This document shows, piece after piece, positions 2,415 to 26,043 of a stretch of 64,000 nt of DNA. Location: positions 7,100 through 71,099 of the forward strand of contig MGKE01000006.1 of the NCBI GenBank assembly GCA_001794635.1, written 5' to 3'. The position numbers and the translations under genes were made by a program. Source of the DNA: Candidatus Yanofskybacteria bacterium RIFCSPLOWO2_01_FULL_39_28. GTDB taxonomy: Bacteria; Patescibacteriota; Minisyncoccia; 2-02-FULL-40-12; GWA2-44-9. How positions within the stretch are numbered: the first letter of the stretch is position 1; every line of letters begins with the position of its first letter. The notes below the pieces were generated by a model. That model ran no database searches and was not told the DNA's origin. It saw nothing but the letters and a program-made list of their open reading frames with translations.

Positions 2415-2430
2415 ATCCGGATTGTAGTAG

Positions 2431-2706
2431 CTAGAGGTGCGTGCCTCTATTGTTAGTGTTTTCGTAAAAGCCACATTCTGGATGAGTGCAAAAAAGAAGT
2501 GGTTTAGACGACCACGTTCTTTTTCTTCTTGTTAAAGCACTTTGGAAGATACCAACGACTTTTACCATGCGGCGACCACAATGCCAATTAATCCAAGATT
2601 TTCCAGTCATCTTAACTCCTCTGAAATTGCGAACATTACCAAAATGTATAATTGCCAGCTCTGTATAATAAGAACTATCAAGCTCATCAATACTTCTTTC
2701 TACCAT
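2431..2706 (-). CDS. hypothetical small Cys/His-containing protein
   Basis: Start moved to ATG 2706, preceded by AAAGGAGAG. The 91-aa product has WHCGRR and CTHPEC motifs. No family recognised. Confidence 0.45.
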   Translation of the reverse strand: MVERSIDELDSSYYTELAIIHFGNVRNFRGVKMTGKSWINWHCGRRMVKVVGIFQSALTRRKRTWSSKPLLFCTHPECGFYENTNNRGTHL

Positions 2707-2814
2707 AATCTCTCCTTTTTGGTGTACTTCGGGCCACCATAACCAAAGCATAAATTATATAACTAAACTTGTCAAGTTGTGAGGAGTAGGTAATTTTAGT
2801 AGAATTATAGGATT

Positions 2815-3270
2815 ATGCGTGTAATACTTCTACAAAATATTAAGGGTGTCGGGAGGATGGGGGATATTAAGAATGTGGCCGATGGCTATGGGCGGAATTT
2901 TTTGATTGGGAGGGGGTTGGCTAAGTTAGCGACCGAGGGGACAATCAAAGAAGCTGATGCTCTCAAGAAAAAAGCAGAAGCAGGAGAAAAAGTTGCTCAC
3001 GACAAAGCCAAAGAAGTTGCCGAAAAAACAAAAGATATTGTTTTGGAATTTACCAAAAAGACCAGTAAGGCCGGCAAGCTTTTTGCTTCAGTTACCAAAG
3101 AAGAAATTGCCGAAGATATCTCCAAAGCTGTTGGCGGTAAAATAGAAGCTGATGCAATTAATCTCCGTGAACATGGAGAGCATATCAAACAAGAAGGGGA
3201 ACACATGATTGAGGTAGAACTCGCACCCGACATCAAAGTTGAACTCAAGGTGATAGTGAAAGGGGAGTAG
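2815..3270 (+). CDS. rplI: 50S ribosomal protein L9
   Basis: MRVILLQNIKGVGRMGDIKNVADGYGRNFL is the typical L9 N-terminus. Lys/Glu-rich linker helix; 151 aa. Confidence 0.9.
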   Translation: MRVILLQNIKGVGRMGDIKNVADGYGRNFLIGRGLAKLATEGTIKEADALKKKAEAGEKVAHDKAKEVAEKTKDIVLEFTKKTSKAGKLFASVTKEEIAEDISKAVGGKIEADAINLREHGEHIKQEGEHMIEVELAPDIKVELKVIVKGE

Positions 3271-3372
3271 TTTTGATCTATTTCCTAACCAATTTATCAT
3301 CCAGTTCGCTTTTTTAACAAATTCATCAATATTTATTATATCATTGCGCTCATATAGGAGCCTCAATGACTA

Positions 3373-3469
3373 TTATTCCTACAAAAATTTAGTGACACCG
3401 TATGCATTAAAAGTTATGATATATCATAACTTTTAATTTTTCAGACTAAATTTTTGTGAATAGGAATAA
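3373..3469. repeat. nested palindrome (97 bp) in a non-coding gap
   Basis: Perfect 32-bp palindrome ATTAAAAGTTATGATA|TATCATAACTTTTAAT (3406-3437). It is nested inside outer arms ttattcctacaaaaatttag / ctaaatttttgtgaataggaataa. Confidence 0.7.
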
Positions 3470-3552
3470 TTTCATAAATATCTTGAATTTGTAGTAAAGC
3501 CGCTCAAAGGATTCAAAATTGGCAAGGAAATAGCTCTTTGCTTGCCTACACT

Positions 3553-3595
3553 AAAAACGAAACGTCCCCACCGCTTTTTAAAGCAAATGGGGACG
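3553..3595 (-). terminator. intrinsic terminator of the 3598-4215 gene
   Basis: CGTCCCCA (3563-3570) pairs with TGGGGACG (3588-3595). On the minus strand a UUUCGUUUUU run follows. Confidence 0.6.
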
Positions 3596-3597
3596 AG

Positions 3598-4215
3598 TTA
3601 TATCCACTCCTTCCAGGGGGCACGAATGTGCCACCGGAAACGTATCATCGGAAATGCAATCACGAGCGGACCGATGACCATCCAGATGGGCAGGATGTAG
3701 TTGGCGGGCGTATGATTGGTAATGGCGAAAATCGCCAAACCGTAGGCAATCGCAAACGCCACCCAGGCAAAAGGACGATCTTTGTCTGGATTTCTCAAAA
3801 CAAACTTGAATGTTGGAATGGCTGAACAGATATCGGCCAAGATGGCCAGATAGAGAGCATATTGCACCAGCTCTTTTACCTGATTCAGTTTCAACCAAAG
3901 TCCAAGTGAAATCACACAGATGGCGATACACACCGCTTCAATCCGGTCCGGTTTGATCCAGCCATTTCTGCCCAGCCGTTTGATGGTAAGCATCATAACA
4001 ATGAAAGGGTTGGTAAACCCAAACACCGCTGGCCAAACATTGGCTTCTGCTCCAGAACTCTTGTAGGTGACCAGGAGCGCGAAACCAATCAGAGCCCAGA
4101 GAACCCAACTGGTGATCTGGGTCTCAATCTTGCCCTGATAAACACGGATCGCGTACGGAATAACACTGACAACTACCAGCGCTCCCGAAAGCATACCGAT
4201 TTGGTTTGCACTCAC
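3598..4215 (-). CDS. multi-pass membrane protein, unknown family
   Basis: 205-aa ORF with a GTG start and 6-7 hydrophobic segments. It has its own TTGATT-17-TATAAT promoter (about 4233-4261, minus strand). Noticeably GC-richer than neighbours: 35/60 GC hand-counted for 3661-3720. Confidence 0.6.
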   Translation of the reverse strand: MSANQIGMLSGALVVVSVIPYAIRVYQGKIETQITSWVLWALIGFALLVTYKSSGAEANVWPAVFGFTNPFIVMMLTIKRLGRNGWIKPDRIEAVCIAICVISLGLWLKLNQVKELVQYALYLAILADICSAIPTFKFVLRNPDKDRPFAWVAFAIAYGLAIFAITNHTPANYILPIWMVIGPLVIAFPMIRFRWHIRAPWKEWI

Positions 4216-4298
4216 TCAGTAGAAAGAAAATCTTTTAATTATAACACATTTATTAAATAAAATCAAATTTTTGATCCAAACTAAAAATACCTGTAAAT

Positions 4299-4328
4299 TT
4301 GACATGTGGATATCGACAATGCTATACT
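4299..4328 (+). promoter_or_regulatory. sigma70-like promoter
   Basis: TTGACA (4299-4304), 18 nt, TATACT (4323-4328). It points into the structured element. Confidence 0.4.
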
Positions 4329-4331
4329 GAT

Positions 4332-4516
4332 AGCAAGGTGGTAAGCCTGCTGTGAACGAGATCGTTCGTAACTCTGAAGAGCTCCCAATTTGGGGGCTTT
4401 TCTGTTTTTAATAATATAATTTACAGAGATGAAGGAATTCCCGAAGGCTTCCGGAGGTTTTAAAGCTATTGTTTGTCTATCCTGGAGCACCGGTTGAAAA
4501 AATGGTGAGGAAAGTG
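4332..4516. ncRNA. unclassified structured element, copy 1 (paralog of 25087-25282)
   Basis: Shares conserved blocks with the second copy: agcaaggtggtaa, a stem-loop with compensatory changes, a 34/35-identical aatttacNgagatgaaggaattcccgaaggcttcc, ttgtct and agcaccgg. Strand and class are unresolved. Confidence 0.35.
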
Positions 4517-4535
4517 GTTTGTGACACTATCGTTT

Positions 4536-4564
4536 TTGACTTTTAATTTAGAATATGTTACAAT
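4536..4564 (+). promoter_or_regulatory. sigma70-like promoter of the 4574 gene
   Basis: TTGACT (4536-4541), 17 nt, TACAAT (4559-4564). The ATG is 9 nt downstream with no SD. Confidence 0.45.
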
Positions 4565-4573
4565 TAAAAGATT

Positions 4574-5365
4574 ATGGAAACTGCGCCTAGTATAGGTAAA
4601 TACTCGGTCTTATTCTTGCTCATTGTGGGTATTTTTTTGGCTTTGTTTCTAATTCCTTCAGATATAGGCCAAGCCCAGCAAACAAGTCCATCCACCTCAG
4701 CCAAACCAGCCAATTTCAGTGATTCTATAGCTGCTAATACGCTTTGTAGCGCCGGTTTGGGATGCGATAAGGTTGGCCAGCAGTCAATATCTCCAATTCC
4801 TGATTTAACCAGTATTTTCAATACCTCTAATGATGGTCCAAACTATGACCCAGTTATCAGTATCGTTAATGTTCCTGGCCAGACGGCAGTTTACAGAATA
4901 ATTAACGGCCACAAACACGCCATTCCAACGGAAGAGATATTTTATAGTTATGGTTTTGATTTGGATATTGTCCAAAAAATTACCAAATCAGAATTAGACA
5001 AATACCCTTTGGCCAGATTGTTTATCGTTGAAGATTCAGGCGAAGAAAATCCCACAGTACATTATTTAACCGAGAGCGGAATGTTGAGGCCGGTTTTAAA
5101 CTATAAAGTATTTTATTCTTATGGCAACAGAAAAGAGGATATAATCACTATCAACCAAAAAGAATTTAATCATTACCCTAAAAACCAATTCGTTTATATT
5201 GAAAGACCTCAAATGAGTCGTGATATTTATCAGATAACCGGCGGAGTTAAGAGGTATTTAACCCCGATTGCTGTTAAAAGGATGAACTTAAAAGAAAAAG
5301 AAATAGCCCCGATTAATCAAGTTGAATTTGATGAGTATCCCGATGGAGAGCCGGTTATATACTAG
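4574..5365 (+). CDS. secreted/membrane-anchored hypothetical protein
   Basis: 263-aa ORF with an N-terminal hydrophobic signal/anchor (LFLLIVGIFLALFLIP). No family recognised. Confidence 0.55.
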   Translation: METAPSIGKYSVLFLLIVGIFLALFLIPSDIGQAQQTSPSTSAKPANFSDSIAANTLCSAGLGCDKVGQQSISPIPDLTSIFNTSNDGPNYDPVISIVNVPGQTAVYRIINGHKHAIPTEEIFYSYGFDLDIVQKITKSELDKYPLARLFIVEDSGEENPTVHYLTESGMLRPVLNYKVFYSYGNRKEDIITINQKEFNHYPKNQFVYIERPQMSRDIYQITGGVKRYLTPIAVKRMNLKEKEIAPINQVEFDEYPDGEPVIY

Positions 5366-8997: not shown

Positions 8998-9954
8998 TTA
9001 TTCCAGCGTTGAGTTAAGAAAATCCGGATGGCCATTGAGAAAAGCTTTGGCATCCATTTCTTTCCCACCCTCAAGCTGGATTTGCTTGAGTATTAAATAG
9101 CATTTTTGGGTAACAACGGCAATATCGTTGTTTAATTTAAAAACAGTCCCAGGATGTTCAACTTCCAAGTTCCTTGGAAGTTGAACATCCAAGTAATCGG
9201 TTTTAATAATATTTAAAATCTTGTTTTGCCAGATAGTCCATGTTCCCGGCTCTGGATTTAAAGCCCTGATTTGATTATATATTTCTTCGGCTGATTTGTT
9301 CCAATCTATTTTCCCATCTTCGCGGGTAATAATTTTTGTAAATGTCGCTTGGCTGTGGTCTTGTTCTCTGGGTTTTATTTCCTCATTTAAATACTTCGGT
9401 ATCGTTTCAATCAACAACTCGGCTCCAAGCCTGGCTAGTTCCTGCTCTGCTTGCGAGTAGTAAGTATTTGGTGGTAAGTAGTAAGATTTTGAAGATAAAA
9501 TAGAACCATGGTCAACTTCCTCGTCAATCTTCATAATAGTAACCCCTGTTTTGGTATCTCCATTGAGTATTGCTGTTTGAATAGGGGAGGGGCCTCGGTA
9601 TTTTGGTAGCAAGGACGGATGGATATTTATAAAGCCGTATTTGGGGAGTTCAATATATTGAGATGGAATTATTTTACCATAAGCGGCAATTAAGCAAATG
9701 TCAGAATTTAAATGTTTGAATTGTTTAAAAAATTCTTCATCTTTTTTCAGAGAATGGGGTTCAAAAACTTTGATATCATATTCAAGCGCAACTTTTTTAA
9801 CTGGACTAGGCAGAATTACCTTTGCTCGACCAACTGGCTTTTCCGGTTGAGTCACAACCGCTTCAATATGATAATCGAAATTTATCAAGCTTTTTAAAGC
9901 CGGGATGGCAAAGTCTGGAGTTCCGAAGAAAACAATTTTCAATTTATTTTTCAT
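8998..9954 (-). CDS. fmt: methionyl-tRNA formyltransferase
   Basis: KIVFFGTPDFA N-terminus and the HPSLLPKYRG motif. Overlaps def, as in the def-fmt operon. Confidence 0.9.
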   Translation of the reverse strand: MKNKLKIVFFGTPDFAIPALKSLINFDYHIEAVVTQPEKPVGRAKVILPSPVKKVALEYDIKVFEPHSLKKDEEFFKQFKHLNSDICLIAAYGKIIPSQYIELPKYGFINIHPSLLPKYRGPSPIQTAILNGDTKTGVTIMKIDEEVDHGSILSSKSYYLPPNTYYSQAEQELARLGAELLIETIPKYLNEEIKPREQDHSQATFTKIITREDGKIDWNKSAEEIYNQIRALNPEPGTWTIWQNKILNIIKTDYLDVQLPRNLEVEHPGTVFKLNNDIAVVTQKCYLILKQIQLEGGKEMDAKAFLNGHPDFLNSTLE

Positions 9955-18078: not shown

Positions 18079-18136
18079 AAGCTTTCAGTTATTTACTAGG
18101 ACGCATAACCTACATTATCGGACGTTCTGGGTAAAA

Positions 18137-18167
18137 TAAAAACCTGCACTTCCTTACAGGTTTCTTA
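18137..18167. terminator. bidirectional terminator
   Basis: AAACCTG (18140-18146) pairs with CAGGTTT (18157-18163). Flanked by A-run and T-run, between convergent genes. Confidence 0.55.
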
Positions 18168-18185
18168 ATTAGATTTTAATTTTTC

Positions 18186-19229
18186 TTAACCACTGACTTT
18201 TTCTATTATAAGACCCCCTTGCATACTCTGTCGATAGAAATTTGAACTTGGTATGATATTGATTTTTCCCGCCTCCTGAAGAACTTCTAAATCGGCCATA
18301 ACTTTTCTTACTAAAACCTTCATAGCTTCATAGTTTGAATTAGCGCCAGGAACCTGTTCCGAAAAATAAGCCCTTGATTCAGGTGAGGAGTCGATCCTAT
18401 CAAATGAGAAATGAAGATCGGCATATCCCCCATTTGCTAGCGCCTTAACAACATTCAATAAGGCCTTATGTTGAAATAGAAAATATCTAAAGGCCATATT
18501 CGAAACTATCAGATGAAACTTCCCTTCAAACTCTAAGGGCATTCTTTCGGCAACAATATAGTGAAAATGATCAGCGTTAAACATTGCCGGTTCTGGTTCC
18601 ATGGTAATACCATGCGTCTCTATATCCGGATCCAGTTCCTTCATATCTTGGAGAGCTTTTCCCATACCGCAACCAGTATCTAAAACTACCAGTTTGGTTA
18701 CTCTTGTTCTTTGCCTCAATTTTTCCAACAGTCCCCTAAATCCCTTTTCGTCACCGAAGTATGCGTCTGAACCCAGCAGATCTCTGTTACCATAGCGGGT
18801 TAGTCCGTTACCAAATCTTGGCATAACTAATCGTTTTTTGTGCCAGATATTTGGGTTAAAAAGCAACTCCACTTTTTGTTTAGGAGACAACGGGTACGGC
18901 GCTTCTTTTCTGCGGGACCAATTTTTCCAATCTTTTTCGCCGCCGTTTATATAAAAGGTTTCTCCGTCATAGAATACTTGTCCACACAAACCTTCTAGGT
19001 TCTCATGGTTTAGCCTGTCATTGAGTTTCTTTACGACAAGTACTAGTAATAACTGTTCTTCCCTTTCGTTCAGAGGCGTTAAGGAAACAAAACCAAAATG
19101 ATTTTTCATGGCAATTTGTTTAATTTCAGTTGGAGATAACGTAAGAAATTTACCAGACATGATTCCGTCAATGAAATGAGAATACACGAACCGTTCTTCT
19201 TTTGAGTTTTGTCCTGGGTTGTCAGGCAC
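18186..19229 (-). CDS. class I SAM-dependent methyltransferase with unknown N-terminal domain
   Basis: Motif I VVLDTGCGMGKA in the C-terminal half. GTG start; 347 aa. Confidence 0.6.
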   Translation of the reverse strand: MPDNPGQNSKEERFVYSHFIDGIMSGKFLTLSPTEIKQIAMKNHFGFVSLTPLNEREEQLLLVLVVKKLNDRLNHENLEGLCGQVFYDGETFYINGGEKDWKNWSRRKEAPYPLSPKQKVELLFNPNIWHKKRLVMPRFGNGLTRYGNRDLLGSDAYFGDEKGFRGLLEKLRQRTRVTKLVVLDTGCGMGKALQDMKELDPDIETHGITMEPEPAMFNADHFHYIVAERMPLEFEGKFHLIVSNMAFRYFLFQHKALLNVVKALANGGYADLHFSFDRIDSSPESRAYFSEQVPGANSNYEAMKVLVRKVMADLEVLQEAGKINIIPSSNFYRQSMQGGLIIEKVSG

Positions 19230-25019: not shown

Positions 25020-25024
25020 AAATC

Positions 25025-25055
25025 AAAAAGTCCTGGAGAAATGCCAGGACTTTTT
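25025..25055. terminator. bidirectional terminator after rpmA
   Basis: GTCCTGG (25030-25036) pairs with CCAGGAC (25044-25050). Flanked by AAAAA and TTTTT. Confidence 0.7.
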
Positions 25056-25282
25056 GGTGTGGACCGAGGGGGAGTCAAACCCCTAGAGCAAGGTGGTAAT
25101 CCTACTCCCGAGAATCGCTCGGACTCGGCCCTCTTGTCCACGAAATAGATGTTATCAATAGTGAGCTTACCGAACCATCTAATTTACCGAGATGAAGGAA
25201 TTCCCGAAGGCTTCCCGAAGTTCCCGAGGATTATTTGTCTGGCTCGTAGCACCGGATGAGAAAATGATGTGGTAAGGTGAGC
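25047..25282. ncRNA. unclassified structured element, copy 2, with adjoining T-arm-like/ACCA end on the minus strand
   Basis: 25087-25282 is paralogous to 4332-4516. The minus-strand reading has three UUCG-looped mini-hairpins. It ends GGGGUUUGACUCCCCCUCGGUCCACACCA immediately before the terminator. Confidence 0.35.
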
Positions 25283-25305
25283 TAAATATGTTATTATAAT
25301 TAATC

Positions 25306-26043
25306 ATGGAAACAATCCTCAAGGTGGAAAATTTGGGAGTTAGATTTGGCGAGGACCAGGTTTTGAAGAACTTGGATTTTTCGGTTAATAAAGGTGATGT
25401 GTTGGCTATTGTTGGTCCCAATGGCGCCGGCAAATCGGTATTATTCAGAACACTCCTTGGCCTTCTCCCCTACTCCGGTAAATTTGAATGGGCCAAAGAT
25501 TTAAAGATAAGTTACATTCCCCAAAAATTAGCCATAGACCGCGAACTGCCATTAAGTGTCGGTGAATTTATTAAATTTAAACAAAAAGATAAGGCTAAAA
25601 TAATAAATATCTTAAAATCTGTAGGTATCGGGGCTGAACACCAAAACGATAACGAACATTATTTGCGACACATTGAACAACACGTTCTAAACCAGAGATT
25701 AGGTTGGCTTTCTGGTGGCCAAATTCAGAGAATTCTAATTGCTTGGGCTTTATTGGATAATCCTGACGTACTTTTATTTGATGAGCCAACTGCCGGTATA
25801 GATATTGGCGGAGAAGAAACAATATACAACCTTTTGAAAAAACTGCACACCGAATTAAATTTAACCATATTCCTAATATCTCACGATCTAAATATTGTTT
25901 ATAAATATGCCAATAATGTTTTGTGTGTCAACAAAGAAATGATTTGCTATGGTATTCCGGCAACCGTTCTTGATCCCAATTCACTGGTAAAACTTTACGG
26001 CGGTGAAGCTGGATTTTACCAACACGAAAATCATCATGGATAA
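25306..26043 (+). CDS. metal (Zn/Mn-type) ABC transporter ATP-binding protein
   Basis: Walker A GPNGAGKS, signature LSGGQIQR, Walker B LLLFDEP. Paired with an ABC-3 type permease. Confidence 0.85.
   Translation: METILKVENLGVRFGEDQVLKNLDFSVNKGDVLAIVGPNGAGKSVLFRTLLGLLPYSGKFEWAKDLKISYIPQKLAIDRELPLSVGEFIKFKQKDKAKIINILKSVGIGAEHQNDNEHYLRHIEQHVLNQRLGWLSGGQIQRILIAWALLDNPDVLLFDEPTAGIDIGGEETIYNLLKKLHTELNLTIFLISHDLNIVYKYANNVLCVNKEMICYGIPATVLDPNSLVKLYGGEAGFYQHENHHG

Follow-up and report, generated by a model that had tools for sequence, protein, structure and literature searches.

Half-copies of a rod-shaped RNA gene at the two junctions of a chromosomal inversion in a Candidatus Yanofskybacteria genome

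Introduction

What is the structured element that lies between rpmA and the genes of a metal ABC transporter in Candidatus Yanofskybacteria bacterium RIFCSPLOWO2_01_FULL_39_28, and how is it related to a similar sequence found on the other side of a block of housekeeping genes? The element (25047-25322, hereafter copy 2) and its relative (copy 1, around 4332-4516) are both contained in a stretch of 64 kb, called here the window, which corresponds to positions 7,100-71,099 of contig MGKE01000006.1 (assembly GCA_001794635.1) and to whose coordinates all positions refer unless another locus is named. We read the identical stretch as MGJN01000007.1, 7071-71070 (GCA_001794285.1), from which the DNA past its right end was also taken. 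An earlier note, made from the letters of the window alone, had described copy 2 as an unclassified structured element, present in two paralogous copies, whose hairpins and possible promoter were given as read on the minus strand.

Here we report that the element at 25047-25322 is composed of an 85-nt module, a retained apical hairpin and the 3' half of a gene, located on the plus strand, for a long hairpin-shaped RNA ("rod RNA"). This RNA represents a strongly covarying family which is not included in the Rfam 15 catalogue. Copy 1 likewise contains the 3' half only, and the two fragments occupy the two junctions of a lineage-specific inversion. We lean, with limited assurance, towards the view that both are relics of 5'-truncated paralogs tied to this rearrangement.

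Results

The two copies share several blocks of sequence, whose order and orientation are the same. AGCAAGGTGGTAA, located at 4332-4344 in copy 1 and 25087-25099 in copy 2, is identical at 13/13 positions; a second block (4418-4452 and 25181-25215) is identical at 34 of 35 positions, and TTGTCT, AGCACCGG and GA[AG]AAAATG come next in both copies. Every repeated feature listed in the earlier note was found at the place indicated there, and the proposed paralogy of 25087-25282 and 4332-4516 was borne out by BLASTN, which aligned the copies at 79% identity over 101 nt and, separately, over a 20-nt block at 90%. In the 64 kb there are exactly two occurrences of the 22-mer GAAGGAATTCCCGAAGGCTTCC, and no more when up to three mismatches are allowed (0 occurrences expected, as judged from 100 shuffles). 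At the equivalent place after the first block, each copy contains a 5-bp stem (gaacg-agat-cgttc at 4355-4368 and ccgag-aatcg-ctcgg at 25108-25122). The compensatory relationship of these stems, which had been put forward as a sign of selection on RNA structure, is real at the level of sequence, but it concerns two sequences only, with no homologue in the other loci fetched in this study. Another string, GGTGGTAA, is present at six sites, all on the plus strand (4337, 9470, 17365, 25092, 32422 and 44367; 1.1 expected; 0/100 shuffles). It was considered as a marker of further copies or targets and rejected, the four sites outside both copies being ordinary coding contexts.

Homologues were searched for by scanning species-representative genomes with the 22-mer GAAGGAATTCCCGAAGGCTTCC, which gave 9 loci, and metagenomes with a 20-mer, which gave 31. 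One of the genome matches (L005) is a coincidence within a coding sequence, so that 8 genome loci remain, beside the approximately 30 metagenome loci. Both patterns were taken from the 3' half of the gene described below, and every match therefore carries an intact core by construction. Scans of viral contigs yielded chance coding matches only.

The family defined by most of these loci consists of long irregular hairpin RNAs of approximately 175-245 nt, in which a closing helix (P1) is followed by a long helix (P2) and by an invariant apical core, to which the members from the Candidate Phyla Radiation (CPR) add a variable apical hairpin (P3). The core is formed by GGAAAGCGGGAACUGACUGA (5' strand) and GAUGAAGGAAUUCCCGAAGGCUUCC (3' strand), with the predicted pairs GGAA:UUCC and CGGGAA:UUCCCG and two tandem G.A/A.G steps; since these pairs never vary, they are predicted and unproven. 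Where the organism is labelled, members located in AT-rich contigs belong to Patescibacteria (Saccharibacteria, Yanofskybacteria) and those in GC-rich contigs to Nitrospiraceae, and a core of 22-27 nt is identical between the Patescibacteria and the Nitrospira-type contigs.

Covariation in these homologues, a check proposed in the earlier note, proved to be extensive. An RNAalifold analysis of 10 CPR members gave 71 pairs, with compensatory (double-sided) changes in 25 of them. In a count of pairs with controls, performed for the CPR members, 96% of cells were paired, as against 36-52% with slid partners, and the observed value was reached in 0/500 shuffles. The architecture of 10 Nitrospira-type members is alike (57 pairs, 14 of which show double-sided changes). 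With regard to a possible origin as miniature inverted-repeat transposable elements (MITEs) or insertion sequences, from 1 to 3 copies per genome were observed. The copies are diverged and combine compensatory changes with a strand-specific excess of G:U pairs, which argues for selection at the RNA level; the location of the gene does, however, vary among relatives, and the copy in L023 is close to transposase-like ORFs. The genes adjoining full-length members (fusA, relA, gyrB/pheS, mreB/proS) are unrelated among genomes and, because these neighbours change from one genome to the next, rod RNA is to be regarded as a free-standing gene and not as a leader.

A scan of the window and nine loci against Rfam 15 at the gathering threshold detected tRNAs only (four of them in the window), and ARAGORN likewise called the four tRNAs of the window and neither a further tRNA nor a tmRNA. 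At E values up to 10, copy 2, a full-length CPR member and a Nitrospira-type member gave nothing above noise, and the full-length members were without a match to 6S, signal recognition particle (SRP) RNA, RNase P or transfer-messenger RNA (tmRNA). The earlier note had been unable to match the element to any known RNA, and indeed no Rfam 15 family explains the copies. Neither keyword nor sequence-string searches of the full-text literature found the family, and a general search on CPR noncoding RNA provided TIGR-Tas only, which is unrelated. Rod RNA is, in consequence of its covariation and of these scans, a strongly covarying family outside the Rfam 15 catalogue, and the invariance of its irregular core suggests a putative binding site for a conserved partner.

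On four GC-rich contigs of the Nitrospira type (L002, L019, L034 and L036), a variant class occupies the locus of the standard gene. This class has a diverged 5' half (it includes GAGAAUAACGGGAGGCCUUACUGAAUAGG) and an apical block of 43 nt that does not vary among the four orthologues, although they otherwise differ by approximately 15%. As they have no 5' core, these four were considered as truncations and set aside: they are orthologous loci whose 5' half has diverged, and cannot be compared with the copies described here. Two further identities were also rejected, namely an SRP-like RNA, suggested by motifs on the minus sense (GUCAGUUCC and CCCGCAA), as the family is plus-sense and matches no covariance model, and a tmRNA-style tag frame in a shared peptide-like open reading frame (ORF; ..EAFGNSFISVN), which was checked by eye, overlaps the start of the ABC gene and is unsupported.

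Three lines of evidence define the strand. Folding is more stable in the plus-strand sense of the window for 28 of the 29 members (mean gain, 13 kcal/mol); G:U outnumbers A.C in the predicted pairs (40:9 in CPR and 49:20 in Nitrospira-type members); and a plus-sense intrinsic terminator is located after the full-length gene of L008. Rod RNA is encoded on the plus strand of the window, and for these reasons the minus-strand orientation favoured previously is wrong for the conserved part. As to the three UUCG-capped mini-hairpins described on the minus strand of copy 2, TTCG does occur there three times (one of the three is common to copy 1), but the conserved CCUUCGGG is no such hairpin: it corresponds to the 3' core strand in reverse complement, and its plus-strand form, UUCCCG, has its predicted partner, CGGGAA, in the 5' half of full-length members. 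The minus-strand promoter TTGAGG-18-TATAAT (25322-25293) does score 10/12 in a promoter scan; its -10 hexamer, however, coincides with the extended -10, rich in A and T, from which the ABC gene would be read on the plus strand and which is conserved in relatives.

In each copy the gene is represented by its 3' half alone, the pairing partners of which are missing, and the element is thus not a self-contained RNA. Separate hidden Markov models (HMMs) were made for the 5' and 3' halves of the CPR alignment, the latter with 93 positions. With nhmmer, the 3' half of copy 1 was recognized at 4424-4516 (+; E 1.3e-27, profile positions 1-93 of 93), and that of copy 2, which spans 25188-25280 (+), at 25188-25277 (E 1.2e-23, positions 2-92 of 93). 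The latter contains the invariant core GAGATGAAGGAATTCCCGAAGGCTTCC, the 3' strand of P2, AGCACCGG and the 3' strand of P1. Copy 2 has also kept the apical hairpin P3 (gaaatagatg ... catctaattt; 25141-25189, +, read from the sequence), whose loop and 3' arm are nearly identical to those of P3 in the full-length L008 gene. The 5'-half HMM had no true match anywhere in the 64-kb window, from which the 24-mer of the 5' core is also absent even with up to three mismatches. Because this core and the 5' strands of P1 and P2 are missing, copies 1 and 2 are fragments and not complete members of the family. Minimum free energy folds of the two units (z -1.7 and -1.9) offered no cis partner for the 3' strands of P1 or P2. 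Alignment with hmmalign showed that the family-invariant nucleotides of the 3' half are all kept in both copies.

Two other arrangements were examined and discarded. A single inversion through the apex would turn the copies into reverse-complemented 5' halves, yet the 3'-half HMM scores 91.5 bits as compared with 12.7 bits for the 5'-half HMM on the other strand. A split gene would have its 5' half elsewhere in the window, where neither the 5'-half HMM nor the 24-mer search detected one. It was also observed that in copy 2 the P3 loop CTTACCGAACCAT (25166-25178) is complementary to ATGATGTGGTAAG at the 3' end (25264-25276), each of the two deviating from the family consensus so as to create their pairing.

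An intact, full-length rod RNA gene is located approximately 103 nt past the right end of the window, at 9008-9243 (-) of L051, which is equivalent to window positions 64103-64338 (+), and its orientation is that of both half-copies. The gene comes after the terminator of a small ORF. Copy 1 is 92.4% identical to the 3' half of this gene over 105 nt (BLASTN). Copy 2 shows less identity to the intact gene (77%) and to copy 1 (79%), and its closest relatives, L023 (86%) and L008 (82.6%), are from other species. Cofolding with the 5' half of the intact gene gave -68.0 kcal/mol for copy 1, -69.8 kcal/mol for the cognate 3' half and approximately -40 kcal/mol for shuffled sequences; the value for the 3' half of copy 2 was -52 kcal/mol, with shuffled sequences at -46.7 +/- 4. 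Two full-length paralogs, at 4456-4678 (-) and 18119-18361 (+), are present in L053, the closest relative examined, whose ABC ATPase is 88% identical to that of the window. At the corresponding sites the genome of the window is without a rod RNA gene, and one of the two paralogs has an extra 20-nt hairpin inserted in the AAGGC loop of the core.

Further loci of CPR bacteria with a 3' half only are L035 and L023. The former is situated downstream of proS, at the site occupied by a full gene in L009; it has lost the 5' half as far as the P3 loop, but still has the sequence that precedes the RNA start. The contig of L023 also carries a full gene at another place (L040). In each of the truncated CPR copies (4/4) the break is at or near the apical hairpin P3. 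One gene upstream of the 3'-half copy of L023, three adjacent ORFs (2430-3596, -) were observed, which, from a reading of their translations, we take to be putative frameshifted fragments of a DDE (rve-type) transposase. Another contig (L044, 1-330; ERZ27254756 k141_2495096) joins the upstream flank of L023 to copy 2 and the ABC gene of the window species. Its first ~200 nt match the L023 flank exactly by eye and the join is in the shared core GGAGATGAAGGAATTCCCGAAGGCTTCCCGAAGTT; the contig is either an assembly chimera or a genuine recombinant.

The position of the half-copies in the chromosome was analysed by comparison of gene order with five loci (L053-L057) from four related, Yanofskybacteria-like genomes, L056 being a continuation of L057 on the same contig. 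In L057/L056, CtpA and rplI (+) are followed by rpmA (-), typA and, further on, Ndh, the M23 peptidase, gltX and priA, and then by def, fmt, GH1, a gene encoding a 263-aa protein (-), the ABC ATPase gene (+), the permease gene and efp. L053, L054 and L055 concur with this order over the parts that they cover, with EamA (in L053 and L054) and ROK (in L054) between GH1 and the 263-aa gene. In the window, the genes from the 263-aa gene to rpmA (4574-25019, including fmt, def, priA, gltX and typA) are inverted with respect to the relatives that cover the block. As judged from these gene orders, a segment of 20.5 kb (4517-25056) is thus a lineage-specific inversion, whose breakpoints fall between rplI and rpmA and between the 263-aa and ABC genes, with one half-copy at each of the resulting junctions (J1 and J2). 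Because both junctions recur in independent assemblies, they do not result from a single misassembly.

In L057, rplI and rpmA are separated by 25 nt. The gap between the divergent 263-aa and ABC genes is 77-106 nt in three relatives and 369 nt in the fourth, and no rod RNA sequence is present in this intergenic region of L053-L056. The ancestral sequence restarts right after each half-copy. Just after the end of copy 1, a promoter scan located the predicted ancestral promoter of the 263-aa gene (TTGACT-17-TACAAT, 4536-4564, +), and its orthologue in each of L053, L054 and L056 is likewise preceded by AGTCAA...TGTTA(A/C)AAT. Just after the end of copy 2 lies the ancestral extended -10 of the ABC ATPase gene, TGtTATTATAAT (25289-25300, +), with aTGaTATTAT conserved upstream of that gene in the same three relatives.

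The left edge of J2 is formed by the bidirectional intrinsic terminator of rpmA (25024-25056), a 13-bp stem followed by a T run. At J1 there is a gene for a 205-aa multi-pass membrane protein (3598-4215, -), whose GC content (0.46-0.52) differs from that nearby (~0.33-0.42). This gene is missing between rplI and rpmA in L057, its product has only one Pfam match, weak and below threshold (DUF6350), and the gene was probably acquired at this junction. A 39-nt inverted repeat (4229-4267 and 4535-4573, 74% complementary) was noted to flank the whole copy 1 unit. It links two promoter-leader regions, that of the membrane-protein gene and that of the 263-aa gene, and may represent either a promoter duplication or no more than the AT-rich features that promoters share.

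Upstream of P3, the two copies have a module in common, composed of AGCAAGGTGGTAAnCCTnCT, a further 1-3 nt and the 5-bp stem, the sequence of which is wholly different. In copy 2 this module is an 85-nt self-complementary unit (25057-25141; GTGGAC..GAGGG..GAGTC / GACTC..CCCTC..GTCCAC) that encloses hairpin B (25087-25106) and hairpin A (25108-25122) and folds on both strands (plus, -35.5 kcal/mol, z -2.5; minus, -39.9 kcal/mol, z -3.3). The inverted pair GTGGAC..GAGGG is found nowhere else in the window, and the module has no BLAST similarity to the other fetched loci. On the minus strand it has a tRNA-like look with an ...ACCA end, which had been compared with a T-arm: the terminal sequence ...GGGGTTTGACTCCCCCTCGGTCCACACCA / ...CCACACCA does adjoin the rpmA terminator, but it is a feature of copy 2 only, neither ARAGORN nor Rfam recognizes a tRNA or tmRNA in it, and the best resemblance, to tRNA-Sec, reaches 18 bits (E 0.81) as against a cut-off of 47.

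The module of copy 1 (4299-4410, +) comprises a promoter, TTGACA-18-TATACT (4299-4328, +), that scores 11/12 and has a TG motif, hairpin B (4332-4351), hairpin A (4355-4368) and a terminator-like hairpin with a 12-bp stem (4376-4402) followed by a T run. Its plus-strand fold (-33.6 kcal/mol, z -4.5) and these signals make it look like a candidate stand-alone small RNA gene of approximately 75 nt, situated directly upstream of the 3' half. In both copies the G:U pairs of hairpin B occur on the minus strand only. A strain variant (L045) shows three differences within 25057-25190, two of them in the 5' arm of P3; all are A-to-G changes opposite U on the plus strand, and they consequently leave G:U pairs when the plus strand is read but C.A mismatches when the minus strand is. 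Among 74 fetched loci, the module was found in assemblies of the same species only, apart from one chance coding match in L010.

Discussion

The conserved part of the element belongs to an RNA whose fold requires two halves, and the fragments of the window cannot adopt this fold in cis because all of the pairing partners are missing. It is this lack of partners that makes them most likely relics, and not independent riboswitch-like or tRNA-like elements. We consider it somewhat probable that copies 1 and 2 are 5'-truncated relics of paralogs tied to the inversion. The half-copies may be by-products of breakage or recombination at palindrome-like rod RNA genes, a mechanism suggested by the fact that the four truncated CPR copies all break around the apex. 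Two paralog lineages would have served as sources, copy 1 coming from one close to the intact gene and copy 2 from another subtype. Some residual function of the half-copies is possible.

It is well known that long DNA palindromes and hairpin-forming genes are fragile sites, subject to breakage at their centre (SbcCD-type processing). The rod RNA gene, an imperfect palindrome of approximately 230 bp, resembles such sites in that every CPR truncation lies near its centre, P3, and two of them are at inversion junctions. It differs in that a 5' module shared by two products would not be predicted, and in that the design of our search made the 3' halves alone recoverable.

Several observations weigh against the interpretation of the copies as relics. 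Independent truncations do not predict that the 5' module (the 13/13 block and hairpin A) is common to both copies. The copies are arranged as direct repeats, between which simple recombination does not yield an inversion, and of the one-step and two-step inversion histories that we tried, none fits both the direct repeats at the two junctions and the shared module. The intact state of the invariant 3'-half nucleotides fits either recent truncation or continued selection. Upstream of copy 1 there is a near-consensus plus-strand promoter, and its pairing in trans with the intact 5' half is predicted; in addition, the A-to-G changes in L045 hint at a plus-strand structure maintained in the 5' part of copy 2. 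Finally, the sample itself is biased: both scan patterns fall in the 3' half, and relics consisting of the 5' half only were therefore not recoverable.

In a rival explanation, which we take seriously without finding it probable, the two units are functional short forms, each of them (5' module, P3 and 3' half) being transcribed from the plus strand and used. Such RNAs might present the 3'-core strand to the partner of the family, or, in the case of copy 1, anneal in trans as a competitor or as one part of a two-piece RNA. The full retention of the invariants in both copies, the 11/12 promoter at 4299-4328, the common module, the L045 differences (all three of which keep plus-strand pairs as G:U) and the cofold of copy 1, which nearly equals that of the cognate half (-68.0 and -69.8 kcal/mol), all speak for it, and L035 has likewise lost its 5' half with the sequence upstream of the RNA start kept, while CTTACCGAACCAT and ATGATGTGGTAAG could make a new closing helix in copy 2. 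However, a strong terminator-like hairpin (4376-4410) stands between the promoter of copy 1 and its 3' half, the 3' half of copy 2 does not pair with the intact 5' half (-52 kcal/mol, as against -46.7 +/- 4 for shuffled sequences), the module occurs in no other genome fetched, the folds of the whole units are unremarkable (z -1.7 and -1.9), and the units are missing at the corresponding sites in four relatives. Split RNAs, such as two-piece tmRNA and split tRNA genes, offer a parallel insofar as the half-molecule of copy 1 could in principle pair with the intact 5' half; here, in contrast, the genome has an intact gene in one piece, the window yielded no separate gene for a 5' half, and copy 2 is unable to pair with the 5' half of the resident gene. 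A wider proposal, according to which rod RNA would be a hitherto undescribed RNA conserved widely among bacteria and its genes, as long palindromes, would be recombination hot spots reshaping the streamlined genomes of CPR bacteria, with expressed half-genes that pair or compete with the intact RNA, appears doubtful to us. An unlikely origin is that of attachment-site (att) remnants, left by integrative elements that target the rod RNA gene, as others do tRNA and tmRNA genes, and duplicate its 3' part, the module then being the conserved arm of the element beside the crossover. It would account for the duplication of 3' parts alone, all oriented as the intact gene, for the non-gene module directly 5' of both fragments, for the compositionally foreign gene adjoining copy 1, for the transposase-like ORFs near the L023 fragment and for the subtype of copy 2, which differs from the resident gene as an imported 3' part would. 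Yet no integrase or recombinase gene is found near either copy, the fragments are upstream of the intact gene where the model needs them downstream, the DNA between and around them is syntenic core chromosome (fmt, def, priA, gltX, typA, rpmA) without an island, and the blocks of identity far exceed typical crossover cores. The comparison with partial duplicates of tRNA and tmRNA genes at junctions is instructive: these are also 3'-part fragments in the orientation of an intact copy on the same replicon, with rearranged or foreign DNA adjoining, but in our case there is no integrase, the fragments precede the intact gene, inverted core genes take the place of an island, and fragments of approximately 90-130 nt break at the apical hairpin and not at a short crossover core.

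The minus-strand RNA of approximately 230 nt envisaged previously, which would start at TTGAGG-18-TATAAT, contain UUCG hairpins and end in a tRNA-like ACCA, with copy 1 as its paralog, must be judged distinctly unlikely. The promoter-like site and the rpmA terminator exist, the 3' domain is more stable on this strand (-39.9 kcal/mol, z -3.3, as compared with -35.5 kcal/mol on the plus strand), the G:U pairs of hairpin B are confined to it in both copies, and the sequence can be drawn as a cloverleaf-like fold whose acceptor stem is G3:U70-like, with a weak match to tRNA-Sec. Against this, the conserved two-thirds of the element is a plus-strand family, ARAGORN and the tRNA and tmRNA models of Rfam are silent (tRNA-Sec remaining at 18 bits, far from the cut-off of 47), the T-arm and ACCA are missing from copy 1, the T-loop UUUGACU is without C56 and the D-like loop without GG (as judged against canonical tRNAs), the L045 differences either create C.A mismatches or strike the U8-like base, the z-score of the whole fold is -1.0, and the -10 hexamer overlaps both the ABC start codon and the plus-strand promoter, which is conserved. 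Least probable of all, to the point of being hardly tenable, is a cis-regulatory leader, for example a riboswitch, of the metal ABC transporter (copy 2) or of the secreted 263-aa protein (copy 1). Both units do lie directly upstream of plus-strand genes, but the orthologous genes of four relatives are without the element (the region upstream of the ABC gene contains 77-369 nt and nothing of the kind), full-length members stand beside unrelated genes and no Rfam riboswitch matches; moreover, the conserved promoters of both downstream genes come after the units, which for this reason are not part of the leaders.

Whatever the history of the half-copies, the main interest of this locus lies in the rod RNA family itself, an RNA of approximately 200 nt that is strongly covarying and absent from Rfam 15. 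It shares with 6S and SRP RNA, which are rod-shaped housekeeping RNAs and may have two paralogs in a genome, a length of approximately 180-250 nt, a largely double-stranded structure with conserved internal loops and a free-standing gene, with two paralogs in L053; it differs from them in having no large central bubble, in the apical position of its invariant region, in its unrelated motifs and in its lack of an Rfam match. Invariance across phyla of the kind seen in its core is usually a sign that an RNA binds a universal partner, and the conservation of this core between Patescibacteria and Nitrospira-type genomes means that rod RNA merits fuller study. The half-copies also carry a caution, as fragments of hairpin RNA genes can be mistaken for new elements of riboswitch or tRNA type, read moreover on the wrong strand. 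The presence of fragments of a structured-RNA gene at both breakpoints of an inversion in a CPR bacterium bears on the question of how small genomes rearrange.

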